From IMG/VR virus record IMGVR_UViG_3300020595_003017, positions 126,529 to 190,528 of that record: a stretch of 64,000 nucleotides of DNA. The stretch is one strand, 5' to 3'. The stretch comes from a virus. This document shows, one piece after another, positions 1,045 to 64,000 of this stretch; position 1 is the first letter of the stretch, and every line of letters begins with the position of its first letter. Made by a program: the position numbers and the translations under genes. A model generated the notes under the pieces. It worked only from the letters and a program-made list of their open reading frames with translations, made no database searches and was not told where the DNA came from.

Positions 1045-1047
1045 AAA

Positions 1048-4907: not shown

Positions 4908-4914
4908 GGTGTGA

Positions 4915-5588: not shown

Positions 5589-5618
5589 TACGTTATAGGA
5601 AAAGTCTGGGAGTAAAAA

Positions 5619-7601: not shown

Positions 7602-7604
7602 TGA

Positions 7605-8039
7605 ATGGCAGGATTTAAATGGACATGGGAAACAGCACCACAATCCCCAGGCGCTGGCATTGTTGTAGTTCAGAATTTTGATAAGGAATATAAAGTTCTA
7701 GGTTTGTGGGCTCGTGGTGGCTATGATATTCCAAAAGGACATGTTGAAAGTGGCGAGGGATTTCTTGAGACCGCCATAAGGGAAACAGAAGAAGAATCAA
7801 GTATCACCGACTTAGATTTTAAATGGGGAAAAAGACCGATTATAGTAGATCAGCTTAAGGTATATCTAGCTGAAACAAGTCAACCTGGAAAAGTGGTGGC
7901 TAATGAACATTCGGGGATATTAGAACATGAATACTTGAAATGGATGGAATGGGAAGAGATGTATGAAAAAACTTATGATTACTTGAAGCCCGCTATTTTA
8001 TGGGCCAAAGAAAGCGTGGAAAAAGATGAAAGCAAATAA
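7605..8039 (+). CDS. Nudix hydrolase (Ap4A hydrolase-like)
   Basis: Nudix box PKGHVESGEGFLETAIRETEEES. Confidence 0.85.
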   Translation: MAGFKWTWETAPQSPGAGIVVVQNFDKEYKVLGLWARGGYDIPKGHVESGEGFLETAIRETEEESSITDLDFKWGKRPIIVDQLKVYLAETSQPGKVVANEHSGILEHEYLKWMEWEEMYEKTYDYLKPAILWAKESVEKDESK

Positions 8040-8895: not shown

Positions 8896-8957
8896 ATTTT
8901 TACTAAACATTTTTTCGATCAAGATATACAATCACTATTAGAGGGTCGTGAATACCT

Positions 8958-42600: not shown

Positions 42601-43217
42601 GCATTTTAGGCGTGAGTTCTCAAAACATTCAAGATATTTTAGAGGGCAGCGTCGCATCATCTTTACCTAACCAATTAAAATCCATGATTGTTGTGGCCAC
42701 AATGAATGAAGGATTATCTTTTGGAAATGGGTTTGACGCTGTTCGTCCCAAATTAAAAGATAAAGTTGAAATTTCAGGTAACAATTATATATCCGCCGTC
42801 TTTAACGAGGGCGAGTACCCACCCTATGAGAGAACCGGTGACCCCATGAAAGCGTACGCTAAAATGTTAGCTTTCTGGATGAACTATAAACAGCTTGCTT
42901 GTGTAGAGTATTTGGCAGGGTTCTCTTCAGTAAATTCAAACTCAGTGTCTAAATACTACATTCAAAAAAATGAAGATGACAGTTATTACTACAAAGCAAA
43001 GAGACCGGTTTGGAGAAAGTTTACACGAGCTTTTTATGAAAGTAACATAGATAAGAAGTTTTTGTGTAGGCTTCGACCCATAGGTGATTTGGATTTATCC
43101 CCAACAGATAATTTTGTAGATAAATTTAGCGCCAATTCGTTTGTTGACAAATCAGATGTTTTTGATTTGCCTATTTACAACAGGTATTTTCTGTTGAACG
43201 GTGAGACTGGAGACTAG
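39693..43217 (+). CDS. Large hypothetical protein (1174 aa), probably virion-associated
   Basis: Uninterrupted ORF in the structural block; no motif recognised. Confidence 0.65.
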   Translation: MVDNRLPAPGFINPPTTSFAGVTGYVSADSPTAIFKSSVLFNKNSSSPVLKSNLEFYNISSNLSSPENNWYLNEDILPDLRVRTIISFNPQATKILDFLSQRFNEYQAGKMSFRGNDKASILYESLMGAVDNSFVSNNEDDELFSLELFDSIMGSGGPYDTINVTRTIKNGPNPILNYSQVDDSVMDGVMIHDVPLKNFLLHDDNNEVIKKKLNSLPWQVGRLTNQDNYTAEIVSSKGFEIDLASLGIETFLDQAFSVYCYCYSDYQSFVERYDSNISANPPIDTSALRNGMGFVDIKTFSGTRTKYIPQVGDIVAGPTISATTENPDARMFSDIRQDQNITPDNLRDKLQDTFYRTMVGAIGGERTISQTIKNQNHFSDLWICKDQEENTRYSYAFDLASYLSENSPFPFLYISNGTSSELLRGGDFIEFGEISKVISKTMKKRRVEKNSFVAINDLSVQTSKTYYDDRLGFEKNIGEAMEVRNIFLSEGITDYIKIYEGVYFNRTEKKTQADIDCQYGVNVTVHDSSLLYLTRVQTAMMSLEKAVRNVYDSIVYSPPGAGIYSQKTQMLETSLSSIAVGETNAEEVVTGAIEFYVSILDNFGVIRSDALNIARTNMETRILAGDTDGIKNVADLILTFSNELNSLLRSYYPNNTGVDGSVKESKIETSRSSKNILLRTEHYFKETSDYGKHYGSGYSYLTSNVPNSINSLQGLSRISKQAHLSRASTEFSKYFNIAGSNNPNALTEGFADSSISYYSPLKISVYGKQPVDQTSYKIDEENALDFDFNRYAELFVDLLKLNKKQTPFQFLQNNSVNDTFETSLGKQTQDLFTMLSCEVVPSIDLQFAELDPANIRDDVLTVIDRGAKKESSTDVGTTVLGGGDDASTASGGVTSAKETISALEKSLIDSDFENLKKDDERNNVSAQQKKMPTKIMFNILGELFVNSGMNETNSLDYNSIEFNSLSNLASILGVSSQNIQDILEGSVASSLPNQLKSMIVVATMNEGLSFGNGFDAVRPKLKDKVEISGNNYISAVFNEGEYPPYERTGDPMKAYAKMLAFWMNYKQLACVEYLAGFSSVNSNSVSKYYIQKNEDDSYYYKAKRPVWRKFTRAFYESNIDKKFLCRLRPIGDLDLSPTDNFVDKFSANSFVDKSDVFDLPIYNRYFLLNGETGD

Positions 43218-43218
43218 T

Positions 43219-46200: not shown

Positions 46201-46887
46201 CTGATGAATTTTCAACCGATGAATGATAACCGTGTTGAAAAATATATTGCCATGACAGATGCAGAAAAAGAACAATTTGAAAACATATCAAAAACGCAAA
46301 AAAGATTAACAAACTTTGACCTAGAAAAAGGTAGTGTTCGATTTAAAAATGAGGGATTAGAGGAAATACACAGTGTCCAAGTTTTCAGGAGTGAAACAAT
46401 AGAACCTCATTTTGATGAAGATCAATCACTTTATGATAACTTTAAAGGTAAACTTTATGCGACAATATTACAAGAGGGTGGACTAGATTTAGTTGATACG
46501 CTGGTACCAAATCAAAAATATTATTATATGTTTAGAAGTGTCGATAGACACAATCAAGTTTCTAATCCATCTGAAATATATGAGGTTATGTTATCTTATT
46601 CCGAAGGTGTTTATATACCGAAGATAAAATTGTACAACCCTGAGAAAACATTGGTACAAAACACAAAGCCATCTAAAAAAATGGCTAGATTTATAGAGAT
46701 AAAAGCTGCTGATATTCAGAGCTTAACTTTTGATGAGCGTAACGATACTGGTGACTTAGTAAGATCTCGCAAGGGACTTGTTAGTGAAGAGGATGATAAA
46801 GTGACAGAAAGCAAATTCTTAGTCAGATTGGTGTCTAGGGATACTGGTAGGAAAATAAATATAGTTGTTGATTTTAGGGAAAGATAA
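43219..46887 (+). CDS. Large hypothetical protein with C-terminal fibronectin-III-like segments
   Basis: ATG at 43219 follows a GGAG RBS (preferred over the GTG at 43201). YVDTQVKYEQTYQYELVGY and VDTLVPNQKYYYMFRSVDRHNQVSNPS are FN3-like endings. Confidence 0.6.
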   Translation: MPFNWNFGNDDLNNRQDRNNENRPAEPKGDPADPPRDKSGVDVTLAALVQQIRTGEGGIPPFLDLYLNYLRLAVDGAFGPGDAVKAQKNLRFFEDFSTFLTRNPDQEIPEDGIERLRMFIEEAYNFRDSEEFERERQTTRNGPDGGLEIVAEEDTRAGKLRRLMQAGVALIPPNDTDEDIDRALNRVRRRRIEARERRRQRERESRLFPEQQEGPQGRTRTIMAKRPIGDATLDPITRYYHLNFQAGSAFTKPSDDALYRVVVGDMQQRAYAKLSMNQVFEPSTNQVSQIARYRGTDLSIANDRVNWSLGGYAFEQMPMGYQNAPQQINKWNFSFTAGDNGVVPRNADENPPSEQELAGVPRNLFTSNEGGEFGQVEQFNFPARMNDLALAAFPDPVEYFGAQAATRLINASFRIPAEGQPYPQADLLKMQKMLGIGGWQLNVNSFLRAYAEDERFNINPYNSDGYVFYRAIRDYFNITEGSVKDRLLFMAGLSSSSAREVIENTFVSYSFYNFKAYTGVARDLYGHKMAEAGGSFDGSIFGYIDPEYNYFDAKYETATAGSSIPHALLPNFYTYIIASNTTLPETPDNGSVDFLGGDRASTIRSQAIQQITLGEFSEQLLPSLGDENVSSYLDSYAEAIGSGLVTSLGSQLTRLYRNLGVPAGEIDIFNRLNSRSKTFPMCMKIGVPTGPIGPIGALIEQTGTSTSIMNILVETSTVSEEFQFKCNAYQAPVNPEDPFDVESPENGVQLANLAIRRNSVVYDFDTWIEGIQTTSENIASIQTGGNSYRAGGERMPNEVVTLSGQHFVDNLKLAVKSKADEVTVTYVNLLSSVYESTESHSETFMYKLKKFTTNLDGAAKTLVNEFYFPNTQLSEIIEYVDTQVKYEQTYQYELVGYELVFGSEFKFRTNAYESSGGGWPANVPRALYFDFYVETLPNIKVIEYPIFTKEWNEENILNDNFGGGVSYPLARVVDNPPVQPNAFIYPYKDNYRQVLMNFQPMNDNRVEKYIAMTDAEKEQFENISKTQKRLTNFDLEKGSVRFKNEGLEEIHSVQVFRSETIEPHFDEDQSLYDNFKGKLYATILQEGGLDLVDTLVPNQKYYYMFRSVDRHNQVSNPSEIYEVMLSYSEGVYIPKIKLYNPEKTLVQNTKPSKKMARFIEIKAADIQSLTFDERNDTGDLVRSRKGLVSEEDDKVTESKFLVRLVSRDTGRKINIVVDFRER

Positions 46888-52416: not shown

Positions 52417-53364
52417 TTGCTCAACGATCCCAACTCGGCGAAGAAGAAAAGAATCCTTGATGAAGTCCTTGGCAGGCCATCCCGCCAGGGCAAGGAATAT
52501 CTTTATACTTCCCGATGTTGCGGTCATCACAAAAAGAAACTATCAGTCAACTTTGACAAGAATGTTGCTAAGTGTTGGACTTGTGACTGGCGCACTAAAA
52601 ATTTACGACGCCTAGTCAGGCGTTGGGGTGATATAAGTCACATCCATAGATGGAAGGACTTTGACGCCGATATTGAGTTGGGCGACCTAGACAACCTGTT
52701 TGCCAAGGAGGAAGAAACTAGCCAACGAATCGACCTTCCAAATGAGTTTCAAACACTTACGGGACGAACACACCCTGCTTCCGCAAGAGTCCCCCTAAAC
52801 TATTTACGCAAGCGTGCCGTTGTAGGGAAAGACATTCTGTTTTGGAAGATAGGCTACTGCGCTTCCGGCGAATACAAAAACAGACTGATTCTCCCATCAT
52901 TTGACGAAGAAGGTTATTGTAACTTTTTTACTTCCCGCACATATGACCCGAACATCTGGCCTCCGTATATGAACGGACCCGGCAACAAAGACATCATATT
53001 TAATGAACTGCTGATTGACTGGGAACGAGAGGTCACTTTGGTTGAGGGTGTTTTTGATGCAATCGTTGCTGGCGAGAACAGTATCCCGCTGCTCGGCTCA
53101 ACCCTGCGAGAAGACAGCCGACTTTTCAGGAAGATTGTAAAAAACGACACTCCTGTCCTGTTGGGGCTGGATGCTGACGCACACAAAAAAGCCATGAGAC
53201 TTGTGAAAGCTTTACTGGCTTATGATGTAGAGGTTCGGTTTATGGACACCTCTGGGTATAAAGATATTGGCGAGATGCCACAAGAAGTTTATGAACAGCG
53301 CAAAGAAGATGCGCCTTTTATTGATTCTGATGCCTATTTATTCAAGATTGCTTTAATGGCATGA
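52417..53364 (+). CDS. dnaG: DNA primase (zinc finger + TOPRIM)
   Basis: CCGH...CWTC zinc region, LVEGVFDAI, PLLGS, LGLDADA TOPRIM motifs, KDIGEM. Confidence 0.85.
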   Translation: MLNDPNSAKKKRILDEVLGRPSRQGKEYLYTSRCCGHHKKKLSVNFDKNVAKCWTCDWRTKNLRRLVRRWGDISHIHRWKDFDADIELGDLDNLFAKEEETSQRIDLPNEFQTLTGRTHPASARVPLNYLRKRAVVGKDILFWKIGYCASGEYKNRLILPSFDEEGYCNFFTSRTYDPNIWPPYMNGPGNKDIIFNELLIDWEREVTLVEGVFDAIVAGENSIPLLGSTLREDSRLFRKIVKNDTPVLLGLDADAHKKAMRLVKALLAYDVEVRFMDTSGYKDIGEMPQEVYEQRKEDAPFIDSDAYLFKIALMA

Positions 53365-53373
53365 GGAATCAGA

Positions 53374-54174
53374 ATGAAGATTACACTATCACAACTTCGG
53401 GGAATGGTTGAAGAAGCCCTTCTTGAGAAGAAGAAAAAGAGTGGCGGTAAAAAAGATGCCTGTTATCATAAGGTGAAAGCCCGTTATGATGTGTGGCCTT
53501 CTGCATATGCTTCTGGTGCCTTGGTTAAGTGTCGTAAAGTTGGTGCTGCCAACTGGGGTAACAAAAGCAAAAAGGAGGGTCTAGAACAAGACCCGCTTCG
53601 TGACATGATCCGTGAAGCTATAGCAGAGTTGGCTGAAAAAAAAACTAACCCTCGCATTCCAAGAAAAAAAGGACAGAAGTCTAAGTCAAAAAAACACAGT
53701 GACCTCTATACCGATGAAGACCCCAAGGGCACCATACACGGATTAAAGTTTGCTACAGAAGCAGACGCTAAAAAAAGCGTGTCTAAAATTAAAAGCTCTA
53801 GCAGGTCACACGCCCATAAAGTTCAGGCTGCTGTCGCCATGGAGCAACGTGCAAAAGCTGCTGGCAAAGCATCAGCCGCTGCTGTATACAGAAAATATAT
53901 TAACTCTGTAAAAAAAGAAGAAGCTATCGAAGAAGCTGACAGCGAAGGATTGCGCAAGTGGTTTGGTCGCAAAGGTGAAAAGGGAAGCAAGAGCGGGTGG
54001 GTAGATTGTAATACTTGCCGCAAAGATAAAAAGACGGGCAGAAAGAAGTGTAGTGCCTGCGGTCGTGAAAGCGGCGAAAAACGAGCTAAATATCCAAAGT
54101 GCCGACCCACGCCCTCAGCGTGTGGCAAGCGAGGCAGCTACGGCAAAAAATCAAAGGCAGGTAAAAAAGGATGA
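53374..54174 (+). CDS. Class-I-leader protein made of three basic modules
   Basis: MKITLSQLRGMVEEALLE, then three Lys/Arg-rich modules separated by Glu-containing linkers. Confidence 0.7.
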   Translation: MKITLSQLRGMVEEALLEKKKKSGGKKDACYHKVKARYDVWPSAYASGALVKCRKVGAANWGNKSKKEGLEQDPLRDMIREAIAELAEKKTNPRIPRKKGQKSKSKKHSDLYTDEDPKGTIHGLKFATEADAKKSVSKIKSSSRSHAHKVQAAVAMEQRAKAAGKASAAAVYRKYINSVKKEEAIEEADSEGLRKWFGRKGEKGSKSGWVDCNTCRKDKKTGRKKCSACGRESGEKRAKYPKCRPTPSACGKRGSYGKKSKAGKKG

Positions 54175-55445
54175 AAATTAAAAAATCAATTTTAATTGAG
54201 GCGGTTAGGAAAGTTATTAAGGAGCAAGATTTTGATGCTTCAAAGTTTCCATACCCCACACCAGACAAGTCAGGAAAATACGCAAAATTTGTAGCACAAG
54301 CTGGAAAACCAGAATTAGACAAAGGTCCACCCAACGACGATCAGGTGTCTTATGACAAAAGATCTGATTTTAGCGCCGATGATTTAAAACCCTCCCAGAA
54401 GGAAATTAAATTAGGTCAAGCTCTTGGTATGGCTATTTCTATGATAGGTAAGCTACCTGGCCCCTTTAAAGACGGACCCGGCGGAGACCTTGGTGCAGTT
54501 ATTTCTAATGATGGTTATATTATGGACGGTCATCATCGTTGGGCTGCCTCCATTTTTGCAGTCGGACCAGAGGTTGAACTAGGAGGTTTTCAGATTGACA
54601 TGCCTGGTGAAGACCTTGTTCAGGTTCTGGCACTGATGGGTGATGCTTTTCACCCTGGCGAGAGAAAGAAGCCATCACCACATAATATCATGACTGCTAC
54701 TATTGATGACGTCAATAATATGATCAATAAATTTGTTCAAGAGGGTGTTGGCGATTTTGTAGATGCAGAAACCGTTAAGAGAGTCCTGGATGAGGCTTAC
54801 GGTGGAGTAGAGCAAGCCAAAGCGCATTTTGTCACACAACTTAAAAATGTTCAAAAACCACCTCCAGAGTGGGCAGAGTCCAGAGATAAGATGCCGGTTC
54901 TTGAACCAGACGCTGGTGAACCTGAGAAGGTTGCAAAAGCAATGAAAACTGGTAATGTCGATGTTTTTTATCCCTACGCTGACCAGGACGCTGAAGAAGA
55001 AGAGGAAGAGGAAGAGGAAGAGGCAGCAAATCGTAAGGACATCAATATCAGTAAAATAAAAATTACGAGAGAAAGTATTACAAGAATTGTTAAGGAATCC
55101 CTCAAGGTTAAACAACAAGAACAATACTATCACATTGCGGATGCTATGTATGATGATGGCACACTTGCAGAAGATATCGAATTTTGGGATGATGTTATTG
55201 AAGAGGCAGAGTACCAAGGACGCAAGGTTACTCTTAATAAACCTATGCGTGGCGACGTAAAGAAATCTAAAGTTTATGTTAAAGACCCTAAGACTGGAAA
55301 CGTGAAGAAGGTAAACTTTGGGGATCCTAACATGAAAATTAAAAAGTCAAACCCAGAAAGACGAAAGTCTTTTCGTGCCCGTCATAACTGTAAAAACCCA
55401 GGACCCAAAACGAAAGCACGCTACTGGTCCTGTAAGGCTTGGTAA
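54171..55445 (+). CDS. Class-I-leader protein: ParB/Srx-like domain + poly-Glu + internal leader + basic Cys module
   Basis: LKPSQKEI...VISNDGYIMDGHHRWAA (ParB-like), E10 run at 54993-55022, IKITRESITRIVKESL, C-terminal RRKSFRARHNC...ARYWSCKAW. Confidence 0.7.
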   Translation: MKIKKSILIEAVRKVIKEQDFDASKFPYPTPDKSGKYAKFVAQAGKPELDKGPPNDDQVSYDKRSDFSADDLKPSQKEIKLGQALGMAISMIGKLPGPFKDGPGGDLGAVISNDGYIMDGHHRWAASIFAVGPEVELGGFQIDMPGEDLVQVLALMGDAFHPGERKKPSPHNIMTATIDDVNNMINKFVQEGVGDFVDAETVKRVLDEAYGGVEQAKAHFVTQLKNVQKPPPEWAESRDKMPVLEPDAGEPEKVAKAMKTGNVDVFYPYADQDAEEEEEEEEEEAANRKDINISKIKITRESITRIVKESLKVKQQEQYYHIADAMYDDGTLAEDIEFWDDVIEEAEYQGRKVTLNKPMRGDVKKSKVYVKDPKTGNVKKVNFGDPNMKIKKSNPERRKSFRARHNCKNPGPKTKARYWSCKAW

Positions 55446-55909
55446 TGAAGAAACTAATGACAGAGTGGAGAAATTTTCTCCAAGAAGAAATGAAAGTTGT
55501 TATTGGAGCAGTCAAGGATTATGTTTGCCCACCAGCAACTCAAGATTTAAAATTAAATACCAAAAACCGTGATGCTTCCATCCATGCAGACCATATTAAA
55601 TATGGACCTTTGAATGTTGACGAGCCTGGTGATTATTGGGAAAAGATAGCAAAGTATTGGGATACCTCTGTTGATGCAGCAAAGAAATCTTTGTGCGCAA
55701 ATTGCACGGCTTTCGATATTTCCCCTCGAATGAAAGAGTGTATGCCCGGTGTAACCTCTGATGAAGACGGAGAACTTGGCTATTGTTGGATGCACCACTT
55801 CAAATGCCATTCAGCCCGTGCTTGTTACACTTGGGCCAAAGGTGGACCAATTGATGAAGATAGTGTATCTCACGAATGGCAATCTCGAAGTCCATTTTCG
55901 GAAAAATAA
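55445..55909 (+). CDS. Class-II-leader Cys/His-rich protein
   Basis: MKKLMTEWRNFLQEE, then CPPAT...CANCTAFD...C...GYCWMHHFKCHSARACYTW. TAATG overlap gives the start at 55445. Confidence 0.7.
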   Translation: MKKLMTEWRNFLQEEMKVVIGAVKDYVCPPATQDLKLNTKNRDASIHADHIKYGPLNVDEPGDYWEKIAKYWDTSVDAAKKSLCANCTAFDISPRMKECMPGVTSDEDGELGYCWMHHFKCHSARACYTWAKGGPIDEDSVSHEWQSRSPFSEK

Positions 55910-55910
55910 A

Positions 55911-56741
55911 ATGAAATTGATCATGGAACAGTGGCGAGGCTTTCTCCAAGAGGGAAGGTACGAAGCAGCCACAACAGAACTGACCCGCAAGGTAATACCT
56001 CACGTCAAATATATTATTGACGAGGTTATTCCCAGTGAGGGTGTTCAAAACTCACGCAAGGATTTGATTCTCGTAATCGGCAAGAAATATCAAGCAGGTA
56101 AAACTCTCCCAAAAGAACTTGAAGATATGATGTATATGGCTGAGTTTACTTTCCATATTGATAAAAAACTAGCGGAAGAAACAGGCGATAAGTTTATGAT
56201 AGGCGGGATGCATATGAGCGTCCCTGGTGAGGGTAAGGAAGACGACTACATAAAAATCAATAGTTATTTTGACATTGGCTTCAACGAGCAAGACCTTAAT
56301 GAATATCTTGGTGAACTCAAAGCTGTCACCATCCACGAAATCCAGCACGGCGGACAAACTGATGATGTGCTAGCCACCGCTTTCCCGCCCAGAGAACCCC
56401 TGAAAATCCCGCAGACCAGATGGGACTACAATAAAATAGATGGTATTCGTGGATATTATGCTTCGGACTCCGAAACAGACACCTACACCAAAGAAGTCTA
56501 TAAAAGAGCAAAGTATTACAAGGTGCCCTACACAGAAGCGTTGGATATGCGTATCAAGCAATTCTTTGATATGTTCCGCCGCCGCCGAGACAAGATAAAC
56601 GCCGAAGACGAGAAAGAAACTCCCGGCGAATATAGAGTAAAATACACAGAAGAAGAACTGAAAGACTTCTTTTACAACGAACTGCGTGATAAATATATTG
56701 CGTTTGCTAAAACAAAATACCCAGAGGCTGTGGGCATATGA
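55911..56741 (+). CDS. Class-II-leader protein with HExxH zinc-metallopeptidase-like motif
   Basis: MKLIMEQWRGFLQE (start re-called from 55761); VTIHEIQHGGQ...YYASDSETDTY. Confidence 0.65.
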   Translation: MKLIMEQWRGFLQEGRYEAATTELTRKVIPHVKYIIDEVIPSEGVQNSRKDLILVIGKKYQAGKTLPKELEDMMYMAEFTFHIDKKLAEETGDKFMIGGMHMSVPGEGKEDDYIKINSYFDIGFNEQDLNEYLGELKAVTIHEIQHGGQTDDVLATAFPPREPLKIPQTRWDYNKIDGIRGYYASDSETDTYTKEVYKRAKYYKVPYTEALDMRIKQFFDMFRRRRDKINAEDEKETPGEYRVKYTEEELKDFFYNELRDKYIAFAKTKYPEAVGI

Positions 56742-57250
56742 AAAAACTCCTAACAGAGTGGCGACAATTTCTAAAAGAATCACAAGAGTTTGTGGAAGAG
56801 AAATCGCCTTTGTCTTATGACCGTGCCAGCAACATTCAGAGACTAGCCCTGCGAGACCCCAGCATAGAACCACCTTACCGTGGGGACTTCGGTTTTGCCG
56901 ACCAGTATAGTTATCGTAATCCCCGCACGGGACGGATGACTAAGAAGAGACACTTGGAAGCCCCAGGGTCAGGCGATGATATTATTGGGTTCTTGGATTA
57001 TCACAGCCAAGGCGAAACCTCCGACGGTAAGCCCTTTCTTTACATTGATTACATGAAGACCCGCCGGGAACACAAGGGACAAGGTGTTGCTACGAAATTG
57101 TTAGAAGAGTTTATCAGCCGCTTCGCACCCGAGCCTGGTTCAGTTATTCACTTCGGGAAAATACAAAACCCAGATATGTGGAGCCTCTACGAGAAAATTA
57201 AAGAGAAATACCCAGAGCACCAGATTATGGGAGCAAAGAACTTCCGATGA
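56738..57250 (+). CDS. Class-II-leader GNAT-family acetyltransferase-like protein
   Basis: MKKLLTEWRQFLKE; IIGFLDY...LYIDYMKTRREHKGQGVATKLLEEF (GNAT motif A, R/Q-x-x-G-x-G/A). Confidence 0.7.
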   Translation: MKKLLTEWRQFLKESQEFVEEKSPLSYDRASNIQRLALRDPSIEPPYRGDFGFADQYSYRNPRTGRMTKKRHLEAPGSGDDIIGFLDYHSQGETSDGKPFLYIDYMKTRREHKGQGVATKLLEEFISRFAPEPGSVIHFGKIQNPDMWSLYEKIKEKYPEHQIMGAKNFR

Positions 57251-57723
57251 AAAAACTATTAACAGAGTGGCGAAAGTATTTGAAGGAAGAGGAAAGCCTT
57301 GATCCTGAACTATACGGAAACTGTGGAACACTAGCAGTCGCTCTTTTACAAGAGGCAATCAGCCGTGGGATAAAAGGCACGGAAGTTGTCCTCGTAGTGG
57401 ACTCAGACCCAGAGTTAGATTCAGGTAACCCCTCGGAAGAATTTGATATTTATCATACAGCCATTTATCGTAATGGAAAATATTATGATACTCGTGGGGA
57501 AATTTCACGAGAAGATGTTGGTTCTGTGGCTCCACTGGGATTGACTACTGACCCATCGGAAAAACCCAAGGAAGGCAGAGACTACCTAGTGTTTAGTTAT
57601 ATGATTGATGACCCTGATAGTTTGGCCTACATCAAAGAGGTTATAGACAACAATACCAACTGGACTAACACCTGTGAGTTCTATGGCGACCGAGCCACAA
57701 AATTTTGGGACACAGTAGGATGA
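57247..57723 (+). CDS. Class-II-leader protein with a possible Cys-His-Asp (papain/transglutaminase-like) triad
   Basis: MKKLLTEWRKYLKEE; GNCGTLAVAL...YHTAIYRNGKYYDTRG. Confidence 0.55.
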   Translation: MKKLLTEWRKYLKEEESLDPELYGNCGTLAVALLQEAISRGIKGTEVVLVVDSDPELDSGNPSEEFDIYHTAIYRNGKYYDTRGEISREDVGSVAPLGLTTDPSEKPKEGRDYLVFSYMIDDPDSLAYIKEVIDNNTNWTNTCEFYGDRATKFWDTVG

Positions 57724-58382
57724 AGCAACTACTAACAGAGTGGCGGAAGTTTGTTCTGACTGAAGGAATGAAGACGGCAGCCAAACTACCTCAAGGCTCG
57801 GCAATTGCTATGATGTCCAGGGGCACAAACCCTATGTTTGTTTATACTTATGGCGGCAAGCCCCTGTATGACGAGCCCAACCCTCGCTTCAATCCTGGCG
57901 TCCCAGAAGGGGCACCTTGGGGAGAGGTTCTGATAGGGAAACTAAAACCAAATAGTCAGGGTGATTGTTCTGATGCTTACGGCGTTGACCATTCTGAAGC
58001 CAAGCGTGGCTGGGGTCCGTTGCTTTACGATGTAGCGATGGAATGGGCAAGCCAGAACGGCGGCGGTCTTACTTCTGATAGGGGCAGCGTATCTCAGAAA
58101 GCATACAGGGTATGGAAGCATTACTTAAACAGCCGACCAGATGTTGAGTCAGCACAACTAGACATTAGAAACAAAGGTTATGAGAAAGTTACTCCTGACG
58201 ATGAAAGCGATGACTGCGAGCAAGCCATCTCTATACAGTGGTCTAGATATTATAGAACTAGTAACGAATTTGGATGGTCAGCCGAACCCACAGCCTACCT
58301 GTATAGAGTAAGCGGAACTCCGACGACGGATGCGTTAAGAGCATCAGGACAATTTTTGGAATTAGGGGATCGCTCGCCGTGA
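57720..58382 (+). CDS. Class-II-leader protein with a divergent GNAT-like domain
   Basis: MKQLLTEWRKFVLTE (start re-called from 57705); VDHSEAKRGWGPLLYDVAMEWA...LTSD..VSQKAYRVWKHY. Confidence 0.55.
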   Translation: MKQLLTEWRKFVLTEGMKTAAKLPQGSAIAMMSRGTNPMFVYTYGGKPLYDEPNPRFNPGVPEGAPWGEVLIGKLKPNSQGDCSDAYGVDHSEAKRGWGPLLYDVAMEWASQNGGGLTSDRGSVSQKAYRVWKHYLNSRPDVESAQLDIRNKGYEKVTPDDESDDCEQAISIQWSRYYRTSNEFGWSAEPTAYLYRVSGTPTTDALRASGQFLELGDRSP

Positions 58383-58978
58383 AAAAATTAATGACAGAGT
58401 GGCGAAAATTTAGACACATTGAAAAAGTAAACGAAAAGGTTTACAAGCAGTACGCCTCTCGTTTGAGCGAAGAATTTCAAGAGGCTTTCTGGAACTTATC
58501 GGAAGACCAAAAAGTATTTGTGGTTGAAGACTGGATAAGCCAAGGACGCCCAGCCCAACATTTAACTGAAGAAAAGATGGCAGACCTTGACGCCGAACAA
58601 GCATATAGCACAAAAGTTCGTGGTGTCAATGTTATTATTAATTTAAAAGATACTGATCTTGAAGCAACCAAACACAGCAAGGAGCGTCAGTTCCGCCACG
58701 ACGAAAAGATTTCCAACAAAGCAATCATCCAGGCAGTTGAAATGGCCATCGGCAAGATTATTCAGGACTATGCGAACGGCGAACTAGGTAATGACGAACC
58801 CTTTCATATTCGCATGGTAGGTAAAGGAAAAGTCCCAGCACTTAATGTCATAGCGGTATTAAACATGCAGAGAGGTCCTGATACAATAAAGGTGATCACA
58901 GTCATGAGAAAAGACGATTTCCAAACTGATGATTTTGCCGACGGACAACAAAAAACTTACACAGTACAAACAAGATAA
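58379..58978 (+). CDS. Class-II-leader protein with a possible RelE/DUF4258-like ribonuclease domain
   Basis: GTG start, MKKLMTEWRKF; ATKHSKERQFRH...IKVITVMRK (H..ER...R and terminal vITv..K pattern). Confidence 0.5.
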   Translation: MKKLMTEWRKFRHIEKVNEKVYKQYASRLSEEFQEAFWNLSEDQKVFVVEDWISQGRPAQHLTEEKMADLDAEQAYSTKVRGVNVIINLKDTDLEATKHSKERQFRHDEKISNKAIIQAVEMAIGKIIQDYANGELGNDEPFHIRMVGKGKVPALNVIAVLNMQRGPDTIKVITVMRKDDFQTDDFADGQQKTYTVQTR

Positions 58979-58991: not shown

Positions 58992-59363
58992 ATGGCTACT
59001 ATGATTACAGAAGATTGTATTAATTGCGGTGCTTGTGAGCCCGAGTGCCCTAATCAGGCAATTATGGAAGGCAATGAAAAGTATGTGATTAATCCTAATC
59101 TTTGCACAGAGTGTGTTGGTTTTTATGGTTATGAGATGTGCCAAGACGTTTGTCCTGTCGTGTGTTGTATACCTAATCAGCTTCTTCGTGAGTCTGAGGA
59201 AACACTTTATGAGCGTGCTGTTAAGCTACACGGGGATGACTCATTACCACCTAAAGAGGAACTAAGCCCAGAAACCAGTCGCTTTCGAAATCCTGATTGG
59301 GAAAATGAAATTAGTGATTTTGCAGAACCAGCAGAAGATTACACTGAGTATTGGGAAGACTAA
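58992..59363 (+). CDS. yfhL: YfhL-family 2x[4Fe-4S] ferredoxin
   Basis: MATMITEDCINCGACEPECPN...CTECVGF...CQDVCPVVCC. Start re-called to 58992, right after TATTT. Confidence 0.85.
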   Translation: MATMITEDCINCGACEPECPNQAIMEGNEKYVINPNLCTECVGFYGYEMCQDVCPVVCCIPNQLLRESEETLYERAVKLHGDDSLPPKEELSPETSRFRNPDWENEISDFAEPAEDYTEYWED

Positions 59364-59377
59364 AACACCTTTCGCAA

Positions 59378-59386
59378 ACTATTTAC
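59378..59386 (+). promoter_or_regulatory. ACTATTTAC motif, candidate late promoter
   Basis: In the gap before the ATG at 59390. Confidence 0.4.
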
Positions 59387-59389
59387 TTT

Positions 59390-59896
59390 ATGAATAGGGA
59401 AAGGGACTTTTACAGAAAAATGCAAGAAGACGCTCGTAATTCTATGTACGAGCCTGAGATTATTGATGTCTCCCCTTCCGCCGAAACAACAAAACCCAAC
59501 TATATTACAGCAACCATATGGACTACAATTGTGGCCGTACTAGTGTGCGGTGTATTTTCAGGCTTTCTCCTCTACCTTTACAACGAGAGTAATGTAGAAG
59601 AAACTTTGTCTCGTGCTGTTAGTCAAGCCGTAATGAGCCTTGAGCAGACTATAGAACTCCAGAGTAAAGAGATATCTGCTTTGAAGGAAGAAAATAAAAA
59701 GATACACAATTACCTACAACTTTGGACCCCGCTTGACACTCAACGCTTACGACAGCAATATGAAGACAGGCACAAGCCACCAACAGCCGATGACTTATTT
59801 AATACAGGTCCAGACATTATTATCAGGGGACGTGCTTTACCTCCCCTTAGAAAACTTAGCCATGGGGAAAAACTATGCTTACCTTTCTTGGAATAA
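59390..59896 (+). CDS. Single-pass membrane protein with a coiled coil
   Basis: About 38 polar residues, TM helix ITATIWTTIVAVLVCGVFSGFLLYLY, then heptad-like SLEQTIELQSKEISALKEENKKI. Start re-called from 59351. Confidence 0.65.
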   Translation: MNRERDFYRKMQEDARNSMYEPEIIDVSPSAETTKPNYITATIWTTIVAVLVCGVFSGFLLYLYNESNVEETLSRAVSQAVMSLEQTIELQSKEISALKEENKKIHNYLQLWTPLDTQRLRQQYEDRHKPPTADDLFNTGPDIIIRGRALPPLRKLSHGEKLCLPFLE

Positions 59897-60678
59897 TTGT
59901 TTTAGTAATCTTTGTCCACGAATTGGGACATTATGCTGCTGCCCGTGCTTGTGGTGTAGCGGTTGATAGTTTCTCAATAGGCTTCGGCAAAGTCCTCCTT
60001 AAGAAGCAACTGTGGGGAACTGAGTGGCGTTTGTCGCTAATACCTTTCGGTGGCTACATCAAGCCTCGGGGAGAGAATGATTATAATAATGTAAAGAACG
60101 ACCCTCAATCATTCTGGGCAACATCCCCCTTGAAACGAGCCTTCATCGCTGTAATGGGTCCAGTCTTTAATTTATTGTTGCCCTGGCCATTATATTTTAT
60201 GCTCCTGGTAGGACAGCCTTATCCTGATATTGTTGTTCCTGACGGAGCACAGGCAGGACGAATTGGAGTAGTCGAGGCGGCTGTATATTCTGACAGGATT
60301 GCCCGCAAAATGTATAGCAGTATCTGGGATCAGGTGGTCCAGCCCAGAAAAGAACCTTTATCCATCAAGGAGGTGGGTGGACCTGTAGCTGTTTACGAGT
60401 TTACTGAGTCAGCAAGAAAACGTAGTGTTGAAACAGGAGACTGGGGATTTTTGATAGACTGGATAGCTTTCTTCTCTATCAATCTCGGCGTTATTAACTT
60501 ATTGCCAATTCCAGTGTTAGATGGTGGACATATTAGTATTTCTGTGGTAGAAGGCATAAGACGCAAAAAACTAGCCGTAAAGACAAGGAACGTACTAAAT
60601 ATTATTGGTGCGGTTCTAGTGCTCGGTATCTTTGTTTTAGCGATAACTTCTGATGTGCTACGCCTTACCGGCATCTAG
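59875..60678 (+). CDS. rseP: Site-2 intramembrane zinc protease (RseP/M50 family) lacking PDZ domains
   Basis: HELGH, FSIGFG, IPFGGYIK, GPVFN, GGPVAV, NLLPIPVLDGGH; 267 aa. Confidence 0.9.
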   Translation: MLTFLGIIVLVIFVHELGHYAAARACGVAVDSFSIGFGKVLLKKQLWGTEWRLSLIPFGGYIKPRGENDYNNVKNDPQSFWATSPLKRAFIAVMGPVFNLLLPWPLYFMLLVGQPYPDIVVPDGAQAGRIGVVEAAVYSDRIARKMYSSIWDQVVQPRKEPLSIKEVGGPVAVYEFTESARKRSVETGDWGFLIDWIAFFSINLGVINLLPIPVLDGGHISISVVEGIRRKKLAVKTRNVLNIIGAVLVLGIFVLAITSDVLRLTGI

Positions 60679-60710: not shown

Positions 60711-60812
60711 ATGAAAAAAATACTTCATAAATTGGTTAATCTTTTTAATGATAAACACTGTTGCTGCTGTGGCACATGCTCTTGTTCTTGCTGTAAGGGA
60801 GAGTGTAAGTGA
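60711..60812 (+). CDS. 33-aa cysteine-rich (metallothionein-like) peptide; not in the supplied ORF track
   Basis: MKKILHKLVNLFNDKHCCCCGTCSCSCCKGECK; AAGGGGA RBS-like sequence upstream; its TGA overlaps the GTG of the next gene. Confidence 0.6.
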   Translation: MKKILHKLVNLFNDKHCCCCGTCSCSCCKGECK

Positions 60813-61330
60813 GAATTACCAAGTCCCAACTTATTCAACTAATCAAAGAAGAAGTAGATAAAGAATTTGAACAGGGTATTGTTCTTGAGTCGGATCTTCG
60901 TAGTTCCGAGCCGAATACGAATAGGCGAAGTGCGCACGGTGATAATAGATCCATCCTGATTCACAAAACAGATTTGCCTACCCTTATGACCACAAGGCAT
61001 TTGGTTTTTCCTGCTCCGAGCGAGGGAACTTATAAAGGTATTAGGGTTGCGCTTAAATTAGTAGAAGGTAAGGACACTATAAAAACGGTAGCTAAGGGAC
61101 GTAAGGACTTGAGGTACCTGTTTTTCGGGCCTATACCGAAGCCCACCAAGTTATCTAAGCCTATTAAATTCACTGTAGATGAAGCTATCTTTAGCACCGA
61201 GAACAACGACGTTGGTAAAATCACTTACGATCGAACTGGTTCTGGTGCTATACTTAAGGATAAACAAGGAAGACGCTACAAAGCTAGTCCTATGGTTTTT
61301 GAAGTGATATTCATCAAAGACGATTCTTAA
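60809..61330 (+). CDS. Class-I-leader hypothetical protein
   Basis: MRITKSQLIQLIKEEV leader; cargo not recognised. Confidence 0.65.
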   Translation: MRITKSQLIQLIKEEVDKEFEQGIVLESDLRSSEPNTNRRSAHGDNRSILIHKTDLPTLMTTRHLVFPAPSEGTYKGIRVALKLVEGKDTIKTVAKGRKDLRYLFFGPIPKPTKLSKPIKFTVDEAIFSTENNDVGKITYDRTGSGAILKDKQGRRYKASPMVFEVIFIKDDS

Positions 61331-61351
61331 GTTAATGGAGATTAAGACAAA

Positions 61352-62068
61352 ATGAAATTGACAGCATCTGATTTACGACAAATAATACAGGAAGTCACCC
61401 AAGGTGAGATGGAGTTTTCTGAACTGGAAGCTGCCCGTGAAGACTATTTGCAAGACAAAAACGACGAAACTCGCTACCAGTTCGGAAGAATGGTGGAAAA
61501 ACTTGTAGAACCTCTTATGGCTGAGATGGGACTTTTCTTTGAGGCTGAAGCCTTTTATAATCGAGGCGAGGTTGTCTTTACTAATAATAGAAATATAGAG
61601 GTGACCATTGATCCTGAAGGTATGCAAGGGGGTTACGATGTATACATTAATCCATTGTATGGAGCGGAGGACGATGTTTCGCCAACTGAAACAACAGTTA
61701 AAAGCATGAAGGGTGCAGCACAATTTGTGGCAGACTTTATGGACCTTGGACCAGAGCCTGCCGGCATGGTCGGCGAACCCGAAGCACAAACAGAATTACC
61801 TTTGGAAAATAAAATGAAAATCACTAAATCACAACTACAACAAGTTATTAGAGAGGCACTTGACGAAGAGATGGAAGACCGCATCTCCGGCAAAGATATG
61901 CTGGCTAAGTATGACGCAGAGGAAGGACTGGACGTAATGTCCGCCGAGGAAGCCATGGAAGAACTTGATAACATCTTGACAGATATCCGACAAACATCCA
62001 CGGACGCCCGTTCAGCCAAACAAGCATACCGAGCCGAAGATATGCTCAGAGTTATAACGAGGGGCTAA
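61352..62068 (+). CDS. Acidic protein with two class-I leaders (N-terminal and internal at 61814)
   Basis: MKLTASDLRQIIQE and in-frame MKITKSQLQQVIRE; GGAG RBS. Confidence 0.7.
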   Translation: MKLTASDLRQIIQEVTQGEMEFSELEAAREDYLQDKNDETRYQFGRMVEKLVEPLMAEMGLFFEAEAFYNRGEVVFTNNRNIEVTIDPEGMQGGYDVYINPLYGAEDDVSPTETTVKSMKGAAQFVADFMDLGPEPAGMVGEPEAQTELPLENKMKITKSQLQQVIREALDEEMEDRISGKDMLAKYDAEEGLDVMSAEEAMEELDNILTDIRQTSTDARSAKQAYRAEDMLRVITRG

Positions 62069-62072
62069 AAAA

Positions 62073-62489
62073 ATGAAAATTACAAAATCACAACTACAAC
62101 AAATCATCAAAGAAGAGATGAAAGCAGAACTTAGCGAAGATAAGTATGCCACCGAAGATGACCGCCCTTTGGGAACAAGCCGCTCTTTGATGAGCGATAA
62201 AGACGCAAGAAGAGTGTTGAAGATGGCAAAAATGCTGTCCGACATGATTACACCAGACCAGTCCATGCCCGCAGAAGCCAGAGCTTTGGCTTCGGACATC
62301 TATGGTATTCTGGAAAAGGGTGTGACTGGTGGCATTTCCGACGGACCAGAAGGAAGCGGACCATCAGCCGATATGGAAGATTACGAAAGTGATTACCGTG
62401 ACCCGCCCCGAAAGCCACTCAAAATGGACAAAGGACGCCGAGCCCCAAGCAAGGCAGAACTTGATAGGATGAAGGACTACGACATCTAA
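62073..62489 (+). CDS. Class-I-leader hypothetical protein
   Basis: MKITKSQLQQIIKEEM leader. Confidence 0.7.
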   Translation: MKITKSQLQQIIKEEMKAELSEDKYATEDDRPLGTSRSLMSDKDARRVLKMAKMLSDMITPDQSMPAEARALASDIYGILEKGVTGGISDGPEGSGPSADMEDYESDYRDPPRKPLKMDKGRRAPSKAELDRMKDYDI

Positions 62490-62490
62490 A

Positions 62491-62784
62491 ATGAAAATCA
62501 CTAAAGCCCAACTACGAAAGATTATCAAAGAAGAACTCCTCAGAGAGGCTAACGGTCCCTTTGGCGACGCTCGTGATGAACCAGTTGCTAGTAGTATCTA
62601 TGATGATCATGATGAATATATGGAGGAGCACGCATACGCACTTGGAAGTTCACTTTCAGCCAGCCCGCCGCTCGCCAGAGAAATCTCCGCTCTTTTAGCA
62701 GAGCAATATCCAAAATCCTCTGAGGCTGTCATGAAAGGGTTCAAAGTGGGCGAGGATAGACTTGCCGACCAATATGTTGATTAA
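62491..62784 (+). CDS. Class-I-leader hypothetical protein
   Basis: MKITKAQLRKIIKEELLRE leader. Confidence 0.7.
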   Translation: MKITKAQLRKIIKEELLREANGPFGDARDEPVASSIYDDHDEYMEEHAYALGSSLSASPPLAREISALLAEQYPKSSEAVMKGFKVGEDRLADQYVD

Positions 62785-62798
62785 TGTGAGAACATAAA

Positions 62799-63116
62799 AT
62801 GAAAATCACCAAATCCCAACTACGAAAGATAATCAAAGAGGAACTTCTCAAAGAAGCGTTACCTCCTCATTTACAAAAGCATTTTCGTAAGGATGGGTCT
62901 TCGGTCCATGGACCCGAAATCAAAGATGTCACTCCTGCTGGTTATGGACCAGAAGATGCGGGAATGGATAGTCAAGTAGCAGCGGACGACTTCAATCAAA
63001 TAAGTAGAAGACTTAGCAAATTGTATAGGCGTCTTGATGATATGGATCAGCAAGATGAGGTTATGGATATAAGAAAGCAACTCGTTGCTTTACGGAAAAG
63101 AGTGACGGGAGCATAA
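62799..63116 (+). CDS. Class-I-leader hypothetical protein
   Basis: MKITKSQLRKIIKEELLKE leader, then ALPPHLQKHF. Confidence 0.7.
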   Translation: MKITKSQLRKIIKEELLKEALPPHLQKHFRKDGSSVHGPEIKDVTPAGYGPEDAGMDSQVAADDFNQISRRLSKLYRRLDDMDQQDEVMDIRKQLVALRKRVTGA

Positions 63117-63117
63117 A

Positions 63118-63489
63118 GTGAAAATCACCAAAGCCCAACTCCGTGAAATGGTGAAGCAACAAATAGAAGAGCGTTGCCAAAAGGGCTACAAGACCCACGA
63201 AAAGCGGAAGACCAAAAAGATGTTCGGCAAGCAGTATAGAAACTGCGTCAAGGCAGAGGCTAATTTGAAAGAACGAGCCGCCATCCCTATGGAAGATATT
63301 GTGCGGGCAGAAGATATTATAAAAAAACATCTAGAAGAAATGTTTGACGAGATAGGCAGAGATGGCCTACCCGAACGATTCTCCCTTGATACTCTTGTGG
63401 AACCAATTATACAAAAGTATATTAGTGCTCGCCGAAGTGATAGGACTCCTCGCTTCAATAAAATGACTGGGCGAATGACTCGCCGCTAG
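63118..63489 (+). CDS. Class-I-leader hypothetical protein with a basic two-Cys module
   Basis: GTG start, MKITKAQLREMVKQQIEE, then RCQKGYKTH...KMFGKQYRNCVKAE. Confidence 0.7.
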   Translation: MKITKAQLREMVKQQIEERCQKGYKTHEKRKTKKMFGKQYRNCVKAEANLKERAAIPMEDIVRAEDIIKKHLEEMFDEIGRDGLPERFSLDTLVEPIIQKYISARRSDRTPRFNKMTGRMTRR

Positions 63490-63516
63490 ATTAGATTAAA
63501 CACCCTAAACATTACC

Positions 63517-63525
63517 TGATACAAT
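63517..63525 (+). promoter_or_regulatory. Putative extended -10 promoter element
   Basis: TGATACAAT (TGn-TACAAT) in the gap before the SbcD-like gene. Confidence 0.4.
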
Positions 63526-63554
63526 AAGGCACGCTTACAAAAGGAGTGCGCTTA
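63525..63554 (+). promoter_or_regulatory. Imperfect hairpin covering the RBS of the SbcD-like gene
   Basis: TAAG-GCAC-G-CTT-[ACAA]-AAG-GA-GTGC-G-CTTA; the 3' arm contains AAGGAG and ends at the A of the ATG. Confidence 0.4.
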
Positions 63555-64000
63555 TGGTGCGGATTGCACATTTCGGGGACACCCACATCAAAAATCTGAA
63601 ATACCATTATGAGTATCGTCAGGCATTTGAGGAAATTTACCAGACCCTGCGAGAGCAGGACGTAGACTATATTGTTCACACAGGCGATTTGGCTCATACA
63701 AAGACACAACTCTCGCCAGAGTATTTTGAACTGGCCACAGAGTTCTTGAAGAACTTGGCGGACATCGCCGAGACTCACATCATCCTTGGCAATCATGACG
63801 GCAACCTCAGGAACAGCAGTCGCCAAGATGCCATCACTCCAATCGTTGACGCTCTTGACCACGCAAGTCTTATCCTTCACAAGTATTCTGGTGAGGTTCA
63901 ATTGGAAGACGACTTGACTATTAACGTTTTGTCAATCTTTGACGAGACCAACTGGCAAGACCCAACTGACCCAGAAGCTATCAACATCGCCCTTTATCAC
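63554..64000 (+). CDS. sbcD: SbcD/Mre11 (T4 gp47-like) metallophosphoesterase nuclease; 3' partial, not in the supplied ORF track
   Basis: MVRIAHFGDTH, IVHTGDLAH, ILGNHD motifs; AAGGAG RBS; the frame runs off the window end. Confidence 0.85.
   Translation, partial: MVRIAHFGDTHIKNLKYHYEYRQAFEEIYQTLREQDVDYIVHTGDLAHTKTQLSPEYFELATEFLKNLADIAETHIILGNHDGNLRNSSRQDAITPIVDALDHASLILHKYSGEVQLEDDLTINVLSIFDETNWQDPTDPEAINIALYH

Follow-up and report, generated by a model that had tools for sequence, protein, structure and literature searches.

What holds six adjacent phage genes together when their proteins have only a short N-terminal peptide in common? The question is raised by a locus in the IMG/VR record IMGVR_UViG_3300020595_003017, a viral genome of 190,528 bp which is rated complete by CheckV. 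The window analysed is the last 64 kb of this record (64,000 nucleotides, positions 126,529 to 190,528), and positions refer to the window unless they are given as genome positions. At 55445-58978 the window carries an array of six contiguous genes on the + strand, G1 to G6, with a common N-terminal leader. This leader is probably a lineage-specific capsid-targeting sequence (CTS) on polymorphic internal head proteins that are ejected. The six would most likely be exchangeable proteins that are packed in the capsid and injected together with the DNA, as an enlarged and enzyme-rich version of the internal proteins (Ips) of phage T4.

Six contiguous genes with a common leader

G1 (55445-55909) encodes a protein of 154 aa, in which the leader at residues 1-14 (MKKLMTEWRNFLQE) is followed by a Cys/His-rich cargo of 140 aa. 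G2 (55911-56741, 276 aa) has the leader variant MKLIMEQWRGFLQE and a 262-aa cargo with the HExxH motif HEIQH, G3 (56738-57250, 170 aa) has the leader MKKLLTEWRQFLKE and a GNAT acetyltransferase cargo, and G4 (57247-57723, 158 aa) has the leader MKKLLTEWRKYLKE and a 144-aa acidic cargo with Cys26, His70 and Asp81. In G5 (57720-58382, 220 aa) the leader MKQLLTEWRKFVLTE has its L-x-E displaced by one residue and precedes a 205-aa cargo. G6 (58379-58978, 199 aa) has a GTG start, and its leader, MKKLMTEWRKF.., is followed by a 50-aa linker ending in HLTE (61-64) and by a 135-aa core (65-199). The leaders of G1 to G6 read in order MKKLMTEWRNFLQE, MKLIMEQWRGFLQE, MKKLLTEWRQFLKE, MKKLLTEWRKYLKE, MKQLLTEWRKFVLT(E) and MKKLMTEWRKFRHI(E), and their pattern was MK(K/Q/L)L(L/M/I)(T/E)(E/Q)WR..(F/Y)L.E.

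The junctions are equally compact. They read in order TAATG (with the upstream gene 54171-55445), TAA-a-ATG, ATGA, ATGA, ATGA and GTGA, and in the last four the TGA stop of the upstream gene sits inside the next start codon and the first base of its Lys codon. As the junctions overlap or leave a gap of 1 nt, the array has no intergenic room for immunity ORFs (open reading frames). The original prediction, made from the letters of this DNA alone, had described six consecutive genes with a TEWR-type leader, a next leader that supplies the upstream stop codon in four cases, and no interspersed immunity genes. Coordinates, junctions (ATGA three times, GTGA once) and leader identity agree with this description, all six leaders being variants of MKKLLTEWRKFLKE.

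Similarity between the six genes ends with the leader. Mean pairwise identity was 61% over the 14 leader residues, and mean nucleotide identity was 67% in the first 42 nt compared to 28% in the next 78 nt. The cargos without leader fell into six different BLAST clusters, with no detectable similarity to one another past the leader, and when the G5 family was aligned with G3 by hhalign the alignment covered 16 leader residues only. To estimate how often such a leader occurs by chance, the pattern [MVL]K.[LIVM][LIVM].[EQ]W[RK] was searched in the 190.5-kb genome and in 100 block-wise shuffles of it. The genome contains eight copies, all at the start of ORFs on the + strand, and the shuffles contain 0.04 on average and one at most. 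The two copies beyond the array are at genome positions 48432 and 93254.

Database searches returned little for the cargos. Pfam, PHROGs and NCBIfam gave a match for G3 alone among the six proteins. When profiles of the G1, G2, G5 and G6 families were compared with PDB sequences, nothing was obtained at E <= 1, and the array, G2 and G5 had no blastn or tblastn match among 50,697 records of cultured or deposited phages. Homologues in deposited phages were found for G1 only. Tara and other marine metagenomes contain hundreds of close homologues of the cargos.

Conservation of the leader among related phages

A degenerate DNA pattern of the leader, searched in IMG/VR, identified 31 loci on ~24 contigs (L083-L113), and a relaxed peptide pattern applied to these loci and to this genome yielded 96 distinct leader proteins from ~25 contigs. 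Their cargos were grouped by BLAST in 38 unrelated clusters. The consensus tag has 14 residues, M-K-K-L-L/M-T-E-W-R-K-F/Y-L-x-E. K2 and W8 are present in all 96 leaders and R9 in 95 of them. The motif [LIVM]-x-E occupies residues 12-14 in 83 of the 96, and in the remainder it is displaced by one residue (VLTE, LLSE) or follows slightly further along. From residue 15 conservation collapses.

Synonymous sites were analysed for the residues of the tag. At R9, L12 and E14 the fractions of shared codons were 0.31, 0.21 and 0.51 against expected values of 0.24, 0.20 and 0.52, and all six Arg codons are in use at R9. These residues are thus kept as residues at a chance level of codon sharing, and the peptide, its L-x-E end in particular, is therefore under selection. 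At residues 2-6 and 10-11 sharing of synonymous codons was far above expectation, with 0.69-0.73 against 0.20-0.30 at residues 5-6.

Head genes of T4 type and the proposed mechanism

The source genome is that of a T4-superfamily myovirus. It encodes a gp21-type prohead protease (Peptidase_S77, PF03420, E 1.2e-31) and a gp23-type major capsid protein (MCP; PF07068, E 7.6e-71), an acidic scaffold-like ORF is situated upstream of the MCP gene, and baseplate wedge genes of the gp25/gp6 type are present, with Microcystis phage Mel-JY01 and Flavobacterium phage immuto as the nearest deposited relatives (~33% identity). Seven leader-bearing virus records have a completeness of at least 81%, and all of them except G003 (81%) encode S77.

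The CTSs of T4 are propeptides of 10-19 residues at the N-terminus, and gp21 cleaves behind L/I-x-E (PMC9026906; PMC3012670). The T4 Ips bind the scaffolding core through this leader and have nothing else in common; they vary among T-even phages and enter the host by injection along with the DNA (PMC9026906, PMC3012670, PMC8442874, PMC12373910). The N-terminus of the prohead protease of the present phage is MNKKYVLQE, in which LQE-9 parallels the LIE-9 site of T4 gp21 (PMC9026906), and its MCP has LLRE directly followed by TTT upstream of the conserved core.

The leader would act in a similar way here. Its amphipathic N-terminal helix would bind the scaffolding core of the assembling prohead, by which the attached protein would be enclosed, and the gp21-type protease would then cut behind the final Glu of (L/I/V)-x-E and free the mature cargo in the head. 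At the next infection the cargo would exit with the DNA and could act on the host or its defences before phage gene expression. Each gene would be a cassette of leader and cargo, in which the ATG-AAR start, usually overlapping the upstream stop (ATGA), would provide translational coupling, and the ~40 nt of conserved leader DNA would double as a recombination joint.

T4-like tags on homologues of G6

A connection between the array and T4-type head genes comes from the core of G6. This core (65-199) has an H..ER..RH motif and 430 close homologues in marine metagenomes. It begins right after (L/I)-x-E in all five homologues compared, forming a second cleavage-type site. In L098 the leader is fused straight to the core, with YIKE directly before EKMADLD, and in the present protein the 50-residue linker ends in HLTE directly before the same EKMADLD.

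When 1.84 billion cluster representatives were searched with the G6 core, 62 homologues were obtained. Short ones among them start with MKSFKDYIIE, MKRFEDFIVE, MKNWNDYIEE or MHFKDFYLLQE, and others have class I-like tags (class I is the second leader class of this genome, described below). The CTS of T4 IpII and IpIII is MKTYQEFIAE (PMC8442874). One homologue with the T4-like tag MKSFKDYIIE, P0213, is encoded on a 135-kb contig between Portal_T4 and Peptidase_S77/T4_CASP/Gp23, adjoining a GNAT gene whose product starts with MKSFKEFINE, and the tag is common to five to six genes of that head module. On the T4 map the portal-to-protease interval is the place of the prohead-core genes 67 and 68.

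Found directly, then, are a shared tag, unrelated and exchangeable cargos, a protease gene, a cleavage-type motif under selection and homologous cargos behind T4-like tags.

A site-2 protease as a possible processing enzyme

The enzyme that processes the leader need not be gp21-like. The right flank of the array (59351-60678, + strand) contains the gene of a small membrane protein (59351-59896) and, overlapping it, that of a Peptidase_M50 site-2 protease (S2P; 59875-60678, E 3.1e-57). To our knowledge, an intramembrane protease is unusual for a phage. This pair directly follows the array in L098, L092, L099, L109, L110, L084 and L105 with 59-87% aa identity, and it lies downstream of the array in this genome and in every relative in which the right flank was recovered. 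The leader could then be an amphipathic pro-peptide with another address or another enzyme, used for docking at the membrane and removed by M50, or keeping the enzymes inactive in the producing cell, and nothing would be packaged.

Residues L4, L5, W8, F11 and L12 would indeed make one face of a helix, and the AlphaFold2 (AF2) models are helical at 2-21 and 2-26. A parallel is found in SpoIVFB, a site-2 protease which removes the pro-sequence of pro-sigma-K, and with no immunity genes present some restraint of the cargos in the producer cell is plausible. However, the leader is short and highly charged and does not form a transmembrane segment, whereas S2Ps cut their substrates inside helices that are embedded in the membrane. 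What stays invariant across the leader types is a hydrophobic-x-Glu at the junction, which is the specificity of gp21. The G6 homologues with T4-like tags are situated in a head module between portal and S77, and that 12-kb locus has no M50 gene. The linkage of M50 to the array may be that of a mere conserved flank, and on these grounds we regard a leader without packaging as unlikely.

Exchange of cargos at a fixed island

The capsid-targeting reading describes the genes as cassettes, and the locus was compared among relatives with cargos numbered by BLAST cluster (c). The array forms an island with fixed borders. On its left are a primase-like gene (52417-53364, + strand, with a weak DNAG_N match) and class I genes, and on its right the small membrane protein and M50 genes. 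In at least ten relatives the content and order of the island vary at the syntenic locus, between flanks of mostly 87-92% identity for the primase-like protein (56-57% in L093 and L100) and 59-87% for M50. Thus the island is G1-G2-G3-G4-G5-G6 in this genome, G1-G6-G2 in L098, G1-G6-c7-G2 in L087, G6'-c20-G2-c13-c5 in L104, c25-G4-G5' in L092 and c11-G5-c11-c17-c18 in L099. Breakpoints between relatives coincide with cassette borders. Comparison of the locus across relatives had been proposed with the original prediction of a constant tag and exchangeable cargos; the content was not identical among them, and with 38 clusters behind one leader that part of the prediction was borne out.

Leader and cargo also recombine with each other, G2 being found with two leader sub-variants, MKLIMEQWR or MKKLMTEWR. 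A metagenomic protein of 206 aa, P0171, has a leader and the first ~70 residues of G2 type joined to the G6 core; it may be a natural recombinant of two cassettes or an assembly chimera.

Among 94 leader genes, 59 start in an (A/G)TGA that holds the upstream stop and 11 more in TAATG. The share of overlapping starts is well above the one-third expected for random upstream frames, and the cassettes are therefore translationally coupled, with the leader supplying the stop of the gene before it. Coupled cassettes with a recombination joint would result in different cargo sets in relatives between the primase-like and M50 genes.

These features at the DNA level could be taken further, and the leader could be regarded mainly as a joint in DNA or RNA, for translational coupling and recombination, with the peptide as a by-product. 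The overlapping starts, the breakpoints at cassette borders and the excess codon sharing at residues 2-6 and 10-11, where rare CTA and CGG codons are favoured, all fit such a function. In class II leaders, the class carried by the array, codons 4-6 favour CTA-CTA-ACA and R9 favours CGG/CGA in this genome and L083-L113; genome-wide, CTA makes up 13% of Leu codons, CGG 5% and AGA 41% of Arg codons, and AGA is used at R9 in just 11 of 95 cases. Against a by-product stands the conservation of R9, L12 and E14 as residues, with codon sharing at chance level. Moreover, leaders made of different DNA (MKLIMEQWRGFLQE, MKLLIENWRKFLTE, MNLLREYVRQLLSE) retain the pattern and length of the peptide, and conservation stops exactly at the Glu. 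A joint function is probably real alongside a peptide function, and the two roles are compatible; a joint in place of a functional peptide is very unlikely.

Points against a capsid-targeting function

Several observations weigh against a capsid-targeting leader. Binding to the core, cleavage, packaging, ejection and the action of the cargos are all steps that we infer. In sequence the tag is not significantly similar to the T4 CTS. It has 14 residues instead of 10, with W-R in place of Y..F, and what it shares with the T4 sequences (MKTYQEFIAE / MKTFKEF..) is limited to the MK start, one aromatic residue and the final hydrophobic-x-E. A motif as short as L/I-x-E is frequent by chance, though chance would not put it at one position in 83 of 96 proteins, and two of the six leaders of this array, those of G5 and G6, are without it at residues 12-14. 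The first six codons are conserved at the nucleotide level beyond the need of the peptide, and part of the leader conservation could serve translation initiation or recombination. The M50 gene that always flanks the array is an alternative candidate for the processing enzyme. The array is situated outside the head gene module, ~18 kb away if the genome is circular. Finally, the T4 late promoter octamer TATAAATA is present three times on the + (coding) strand, where ~15 are expected, and 14 times on the other strand; late co-expression of the array with the head genes is unsupported by this depletion. The phage probably uses some late promoter motif other than that of T4.

A second leader class

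Another leader class, class I, was identified in the same genome. It reads MKITKSQL..IIKEE, is also ~14 residues long with an I-x-E end, and heads ~12 genes, of which two are directly upstream of the array, six are downstream of it and the others are at the contig start and at contig position 95516. The genome has ~8 class II and ~12 class I leader genes in total.

Together the two classes would permit a more elaborate form of the capsid-targeting reading, namely a plug-and-play system with two addresses. The tags MKKLLTEWRKFLKE and MKITKSQLRQIIKE would be carried by ~20 single-domain proteins of a polyvalent-type repertoire and would set position, copy number or release order, and the ATGA start would be the universal joint of cassettes at one hot spot. 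The outcome would be a strain-specific enzymatic arsenal (acetyltransferases, metallopeptidase, Cys peptidase-like, RNase-like and possibly Fe-S proteins) delivered before transcription. We consider this scheme possible and rather doubtful in its full extent.

Predicted properties of the cargos

On sequence evidence G3 is verified as a member of the GNAT family. It matched PF00583 (Acetyltransf_1, E 3.6e-6, 27.7 bits with a cut-off of 20.7) and the acetyltransferase family phrog_3810, and it is a singleton (cluster 36) among the relatives sampled. The cargos of G1, G2, G4 and G6 are described by conserved motifs and leads, and the activities of all six proteins are putative.

In G1, the residues C28, C84, C87, C99, C114, C121, C127, H50, H117, H118 and H122 are invariant in seven homologues with 75-86% identity. 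G1 is the most widespread cargo and usually the first in the array. Its phage homologues are labelled 'high potential iron-sulfur protein' (HiPIP) by their depositors, who are the sole source of this label. A CxxC...C...C pattern is present in G1 with a longer insert than in the HiPIP spacing, and the Pfam HIPIP model (PF01355) gave nothing at E <= 10 in the genome. In Actinomycetia phage DSL-LC01 the gene of the G1 homologue immediately precedes those of the capsid maturation protease and the MCP; the gene neighbourhoods of homologues from two small 'Manatee Spring' phages gave no further information.

The HEIQH of G2 is at residues 142-146. Its H142, E143 and H146 do not vary among 16 sequences, the most distant of which has 54% identity, and searches against Pfam, PHROG, NCBIfam and PDB sequences gave no match for G2. 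In G4, H70, D81, R83, G84 and E85 are invariant down to 43% identity, and G-(N/D)-C, which includes C26, is retained in every homologue that spans this region. An ESM lead connects G4 with YunG-like proteins (0.90). It was unconfirmed by Pfam PF24591 or PF01841, as the Phage_YunG-like and Transglut_core models gave nothing at E <= 10 in the genome.

For G5 a GNAT-like fold is plausible from its AF2 model (predicted local distance difference test, pLDDT, 66.5; predicted template modelling score, pTM, 0.72). The top 50 structures aligned to it by VIA-align were nearly all of the GNAT superfamily, with Z of only 4.0-5.1 over 76-120 residues and a root-mean-square deviation of mostly 3.4-5.1 A, and Foldseek against PDB and BFVD gave weak matches (E >= 0.17) enriched in GNAT/NAT_SF. 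The G5 family occurs at 37 further IMG/VR loci with at least five leader types (..TEWR.., ..ENWR.., MNLLREYVRQLLSE, MKLTEAILKKLINE and MKIRIVRKNKQIIKE), all ~14 residues long with a hydrophobic-x-E directly before the conserved cargo start. At L137:2501-3130 (IMGVR_UViG_3300025122_000005) the leader ends in L-T-D instead of L-T-E (MKLIMENWRSFLTD). A T4 leader with Asp at the cleavage position is no longer processed and still allows targeting (PMC9026906), so the L137 leader could be a natural uncleaved variant.

For G6 the leads point to DUF4258, a domain of RelE/BECR-type fold. The nearest named cluster had an ESM value of 0.83, and two of 46 distant homologues matched DUF4258 with E 1.7e-4. 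DUF4258 (PF14076) gave nothing at E <= 10 in this genome, a deeper G6 profile gave only chance-level rows against PDB sequences, and the AF2 model from a shallow alignment was unusable (pLDDT 45). The G6 core also forms the C-terminal domain of multidomain proteins of ~900-1060 aa. Six of the 46 scanned homologues, all longer proteins, match phrog_2859, as does the gene 54171-55445 upstream of the array, and other long proteins with the G6 domain contain PARP-like, NT5C or cytidylyltransferase domains.

Cargo identities in the original prediction thus fared unequally. The GNAT of G3 was recovered by Pfam and the motifs of G1, G2 and G4 are conserved; the GNAT-like domain of G5 is weakly indicated, and for the RNase-like domain of G6 there are leads only.

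Two other explanations of the array were rejected. A leader and core of the type found in ribosomally synthesised and post-translationally modified peptides (RiPPs) does not agree with cargos that are folded domains of 80-540 aa, and an ordinary family of paralogues does not agree with BLAST clusters of unrelated cargos. A polymorphic toxin system of bacterial style, in which the tag would direct export through a secretion apparatus and the cargos would be toxins against competing cells, has in its favour the constant N-terminus with a variable C-terminal domain and the G6 core at the C-terminus of ~1000-aa multidomain proteins, but it is extremely unlikely, since the array has no immunity genes, the scanned window genes include no secretion genes (phage structural, sugar-metabolism and replication functions only), the tag of 14 residues is neither a trafficking domain nor a signal peptide, and the element is the genome of a lytic-type T4-like phage.

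Comparison with known systems

The closest likeness is to the CTS/Ip system of T4 (Ip1, Ip2, Ip3 and the Alt propeptide, with gp21). In both, a short N-terminal peptide with a hydrophobic-x-Glu end is the sole common part of unrelated proteins, the phage has an S77 protease, a scaffold and a gp23-type MCP, and the genes are accessory, lie in clusters and vary from one related phage to the next. At least ten different Ips are found among T-even phages (PMC12373910; PMC3012670). The present system differs in having two leader classes and ~20 tagged genes in one genome, compared to three Ips in T4, and in an array that is apart from the head genes. Its cargos are larger (~16-31 kDa, and up to ~540 aa in relatives), mostly acidic, and several are enzyme-like (GNAT, HExxH, Cys-His-Asp). 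Ip1 to Ip3 of T4 are all three specific inhibitors of GmrSD restriction enzymes (PMC12373910).

Similarity was also found to phage polyvalent proteins and virion-packaged effectors (Iyer et al. 2017, PMC5512222; Dar/DdrB of P1, Alt of T4), with which the cargos share GNAT, putative zincin-like HExxH and ParB-like domains and a candidate RNase of BECR/DUF4258 type. Polyvalent proteins are predicted or known to be injected (PMC5512222). The G6 core ends multidomain proteins of ~900-1060 aa of this kind, and the predicted role is again injection with the DNA at the start of infection. Here, however, each domain is a separate small tagged gene, without a MuF or portal fusion. The cargo set looks like a polyvalent-protein repertoire split into separately tagged genes.

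In the original prediction the locus looked like a polymorphic effector array as in bacterial polymorphic toxin loci. The idea of a delivery tag with variable cargo holds in outline, and a constant N-terminal part, a variable C-terminal cargo and cassette exchange by recombination are indeed features of such loci (Rhs, contact-dependent inhibition (CDI), effectors of type VI and type VII secretion systems (T6SS/T7SS)). The present locus is viral and is without immunity genes, secretion apparatus or a large trafficking domain. The T4 CTS/Ip system is the better analogue, because the phage has a gp21-type protease, the tag has an L/I-x-E end and G6 homologues in a head module have a T4-like CTS.

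Giant phages (phiKZ, 201phi2-1, SPN3US) offer a further comparison, as a gp21-related protease cuts their head and ejection proteins after x-x-Glu (PMC5694885), and the paralogues gp53 and gp54 of SPN3US have identical N-termini (MANFVKSKLARESVE; PMC5694885). Their propeptides are mostly longer than 100 residues and end in S/A/G-x-E, whereas those described here are short and T4-like with L/I/V-x-E.

CTSs on polymorphic internal proteins are already well known for T-even phages, and those of T4 are the textbook example of proteins that enter the host by injection with the phage DNA. New are, for an abundant marine far-T4 lineage, a non-homologous tag of 14 residues, two tag classes in one genome, ~20 tagged genes, enzyme-like cargos of polyvalent type and cassettes at a fixed hot spot; no paper describing such a tag and cassette system was found in the literature. 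If the capsid-targeting reading is correct, abundant uncultured ocean phages would share the loading principle of T4 with another tag and with a larger, enzyme-rich and rapidly exchanged cargo. The combination of tag and L-x-E would serve as a sequence rule to list candidate injected effectors and anti-defence proteins in metagenomes, and the cargos would form a natural list of proteins able to withstand packaging and ejection. The tags would be new ones for protein delivery by engineered phage capsids. Single-domain tagged cargos and multidomain polyvalent proteins would be two solutions to one delivery problem.

Class I genes and other features of the window

Two class I genes with the leaders MKITLSQLRGMVEE.. 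and MKIKKSILIEAVRKVIKE.. occupy 53374-55445 on the + strand, directly upstream of the array. The second of them (54171-55445) matches phrog_2859 and phrog_7595 and has a DGHHRW motif, which we recognised by eye as presumably ParB/Srx-like; Pfam gives no match. Its C-terminal domain is widespread, the last ~85 residues (phrog_7595) being represented by >598 stretches in IMG/VR. This C-terminal part (cluster 1) is behind a class I leader here and behind a class II leader in other phages. Six further class I genes are at 60809-63489 on the + strand, starting with MRITKSQL.., MKLTASDL.., MKITKSQL.. (twice) and MKITKAQL.. (twice), with (I/V)-x-E at about residues 12-14.

The two contig ends (window 62390-64000 and genome 1-2252) are homologous, diverged (85-94% nucleotide identity) and rearranged within class I leader genes. 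This likely results from a circular or permuted genome that was assembled from mixed strains, the assembly breaking among the hypervariable class I cassettes; alternatively, the ends may be a true terminal duplication that has diverged.

Between G6 and the right flank, a gene at 58992-59363 encodes a 4Fe-4S dicluster ferredoxin (Fer4_7, E 9.8e-9), which was found in this genome only among the relatives compared. Four giant ORFs of 1986, 3543, 1174 and 1228 aa (18275-24235, 28020-38651, 39693-46887) adjoin the baseplate wedge genes. They had no PHROG match at E <= 1e-4 and are presumably tail-fibre or baseplate-associated proteins. At 196-14268 the window contains a cluster of nucleotide-sugar epimerase and aminotransferase genes with a cupin/cysteine-dioxygenase-like match and a NUDIX hydrolase, which is a sugar-modification pathway carried by the phage.

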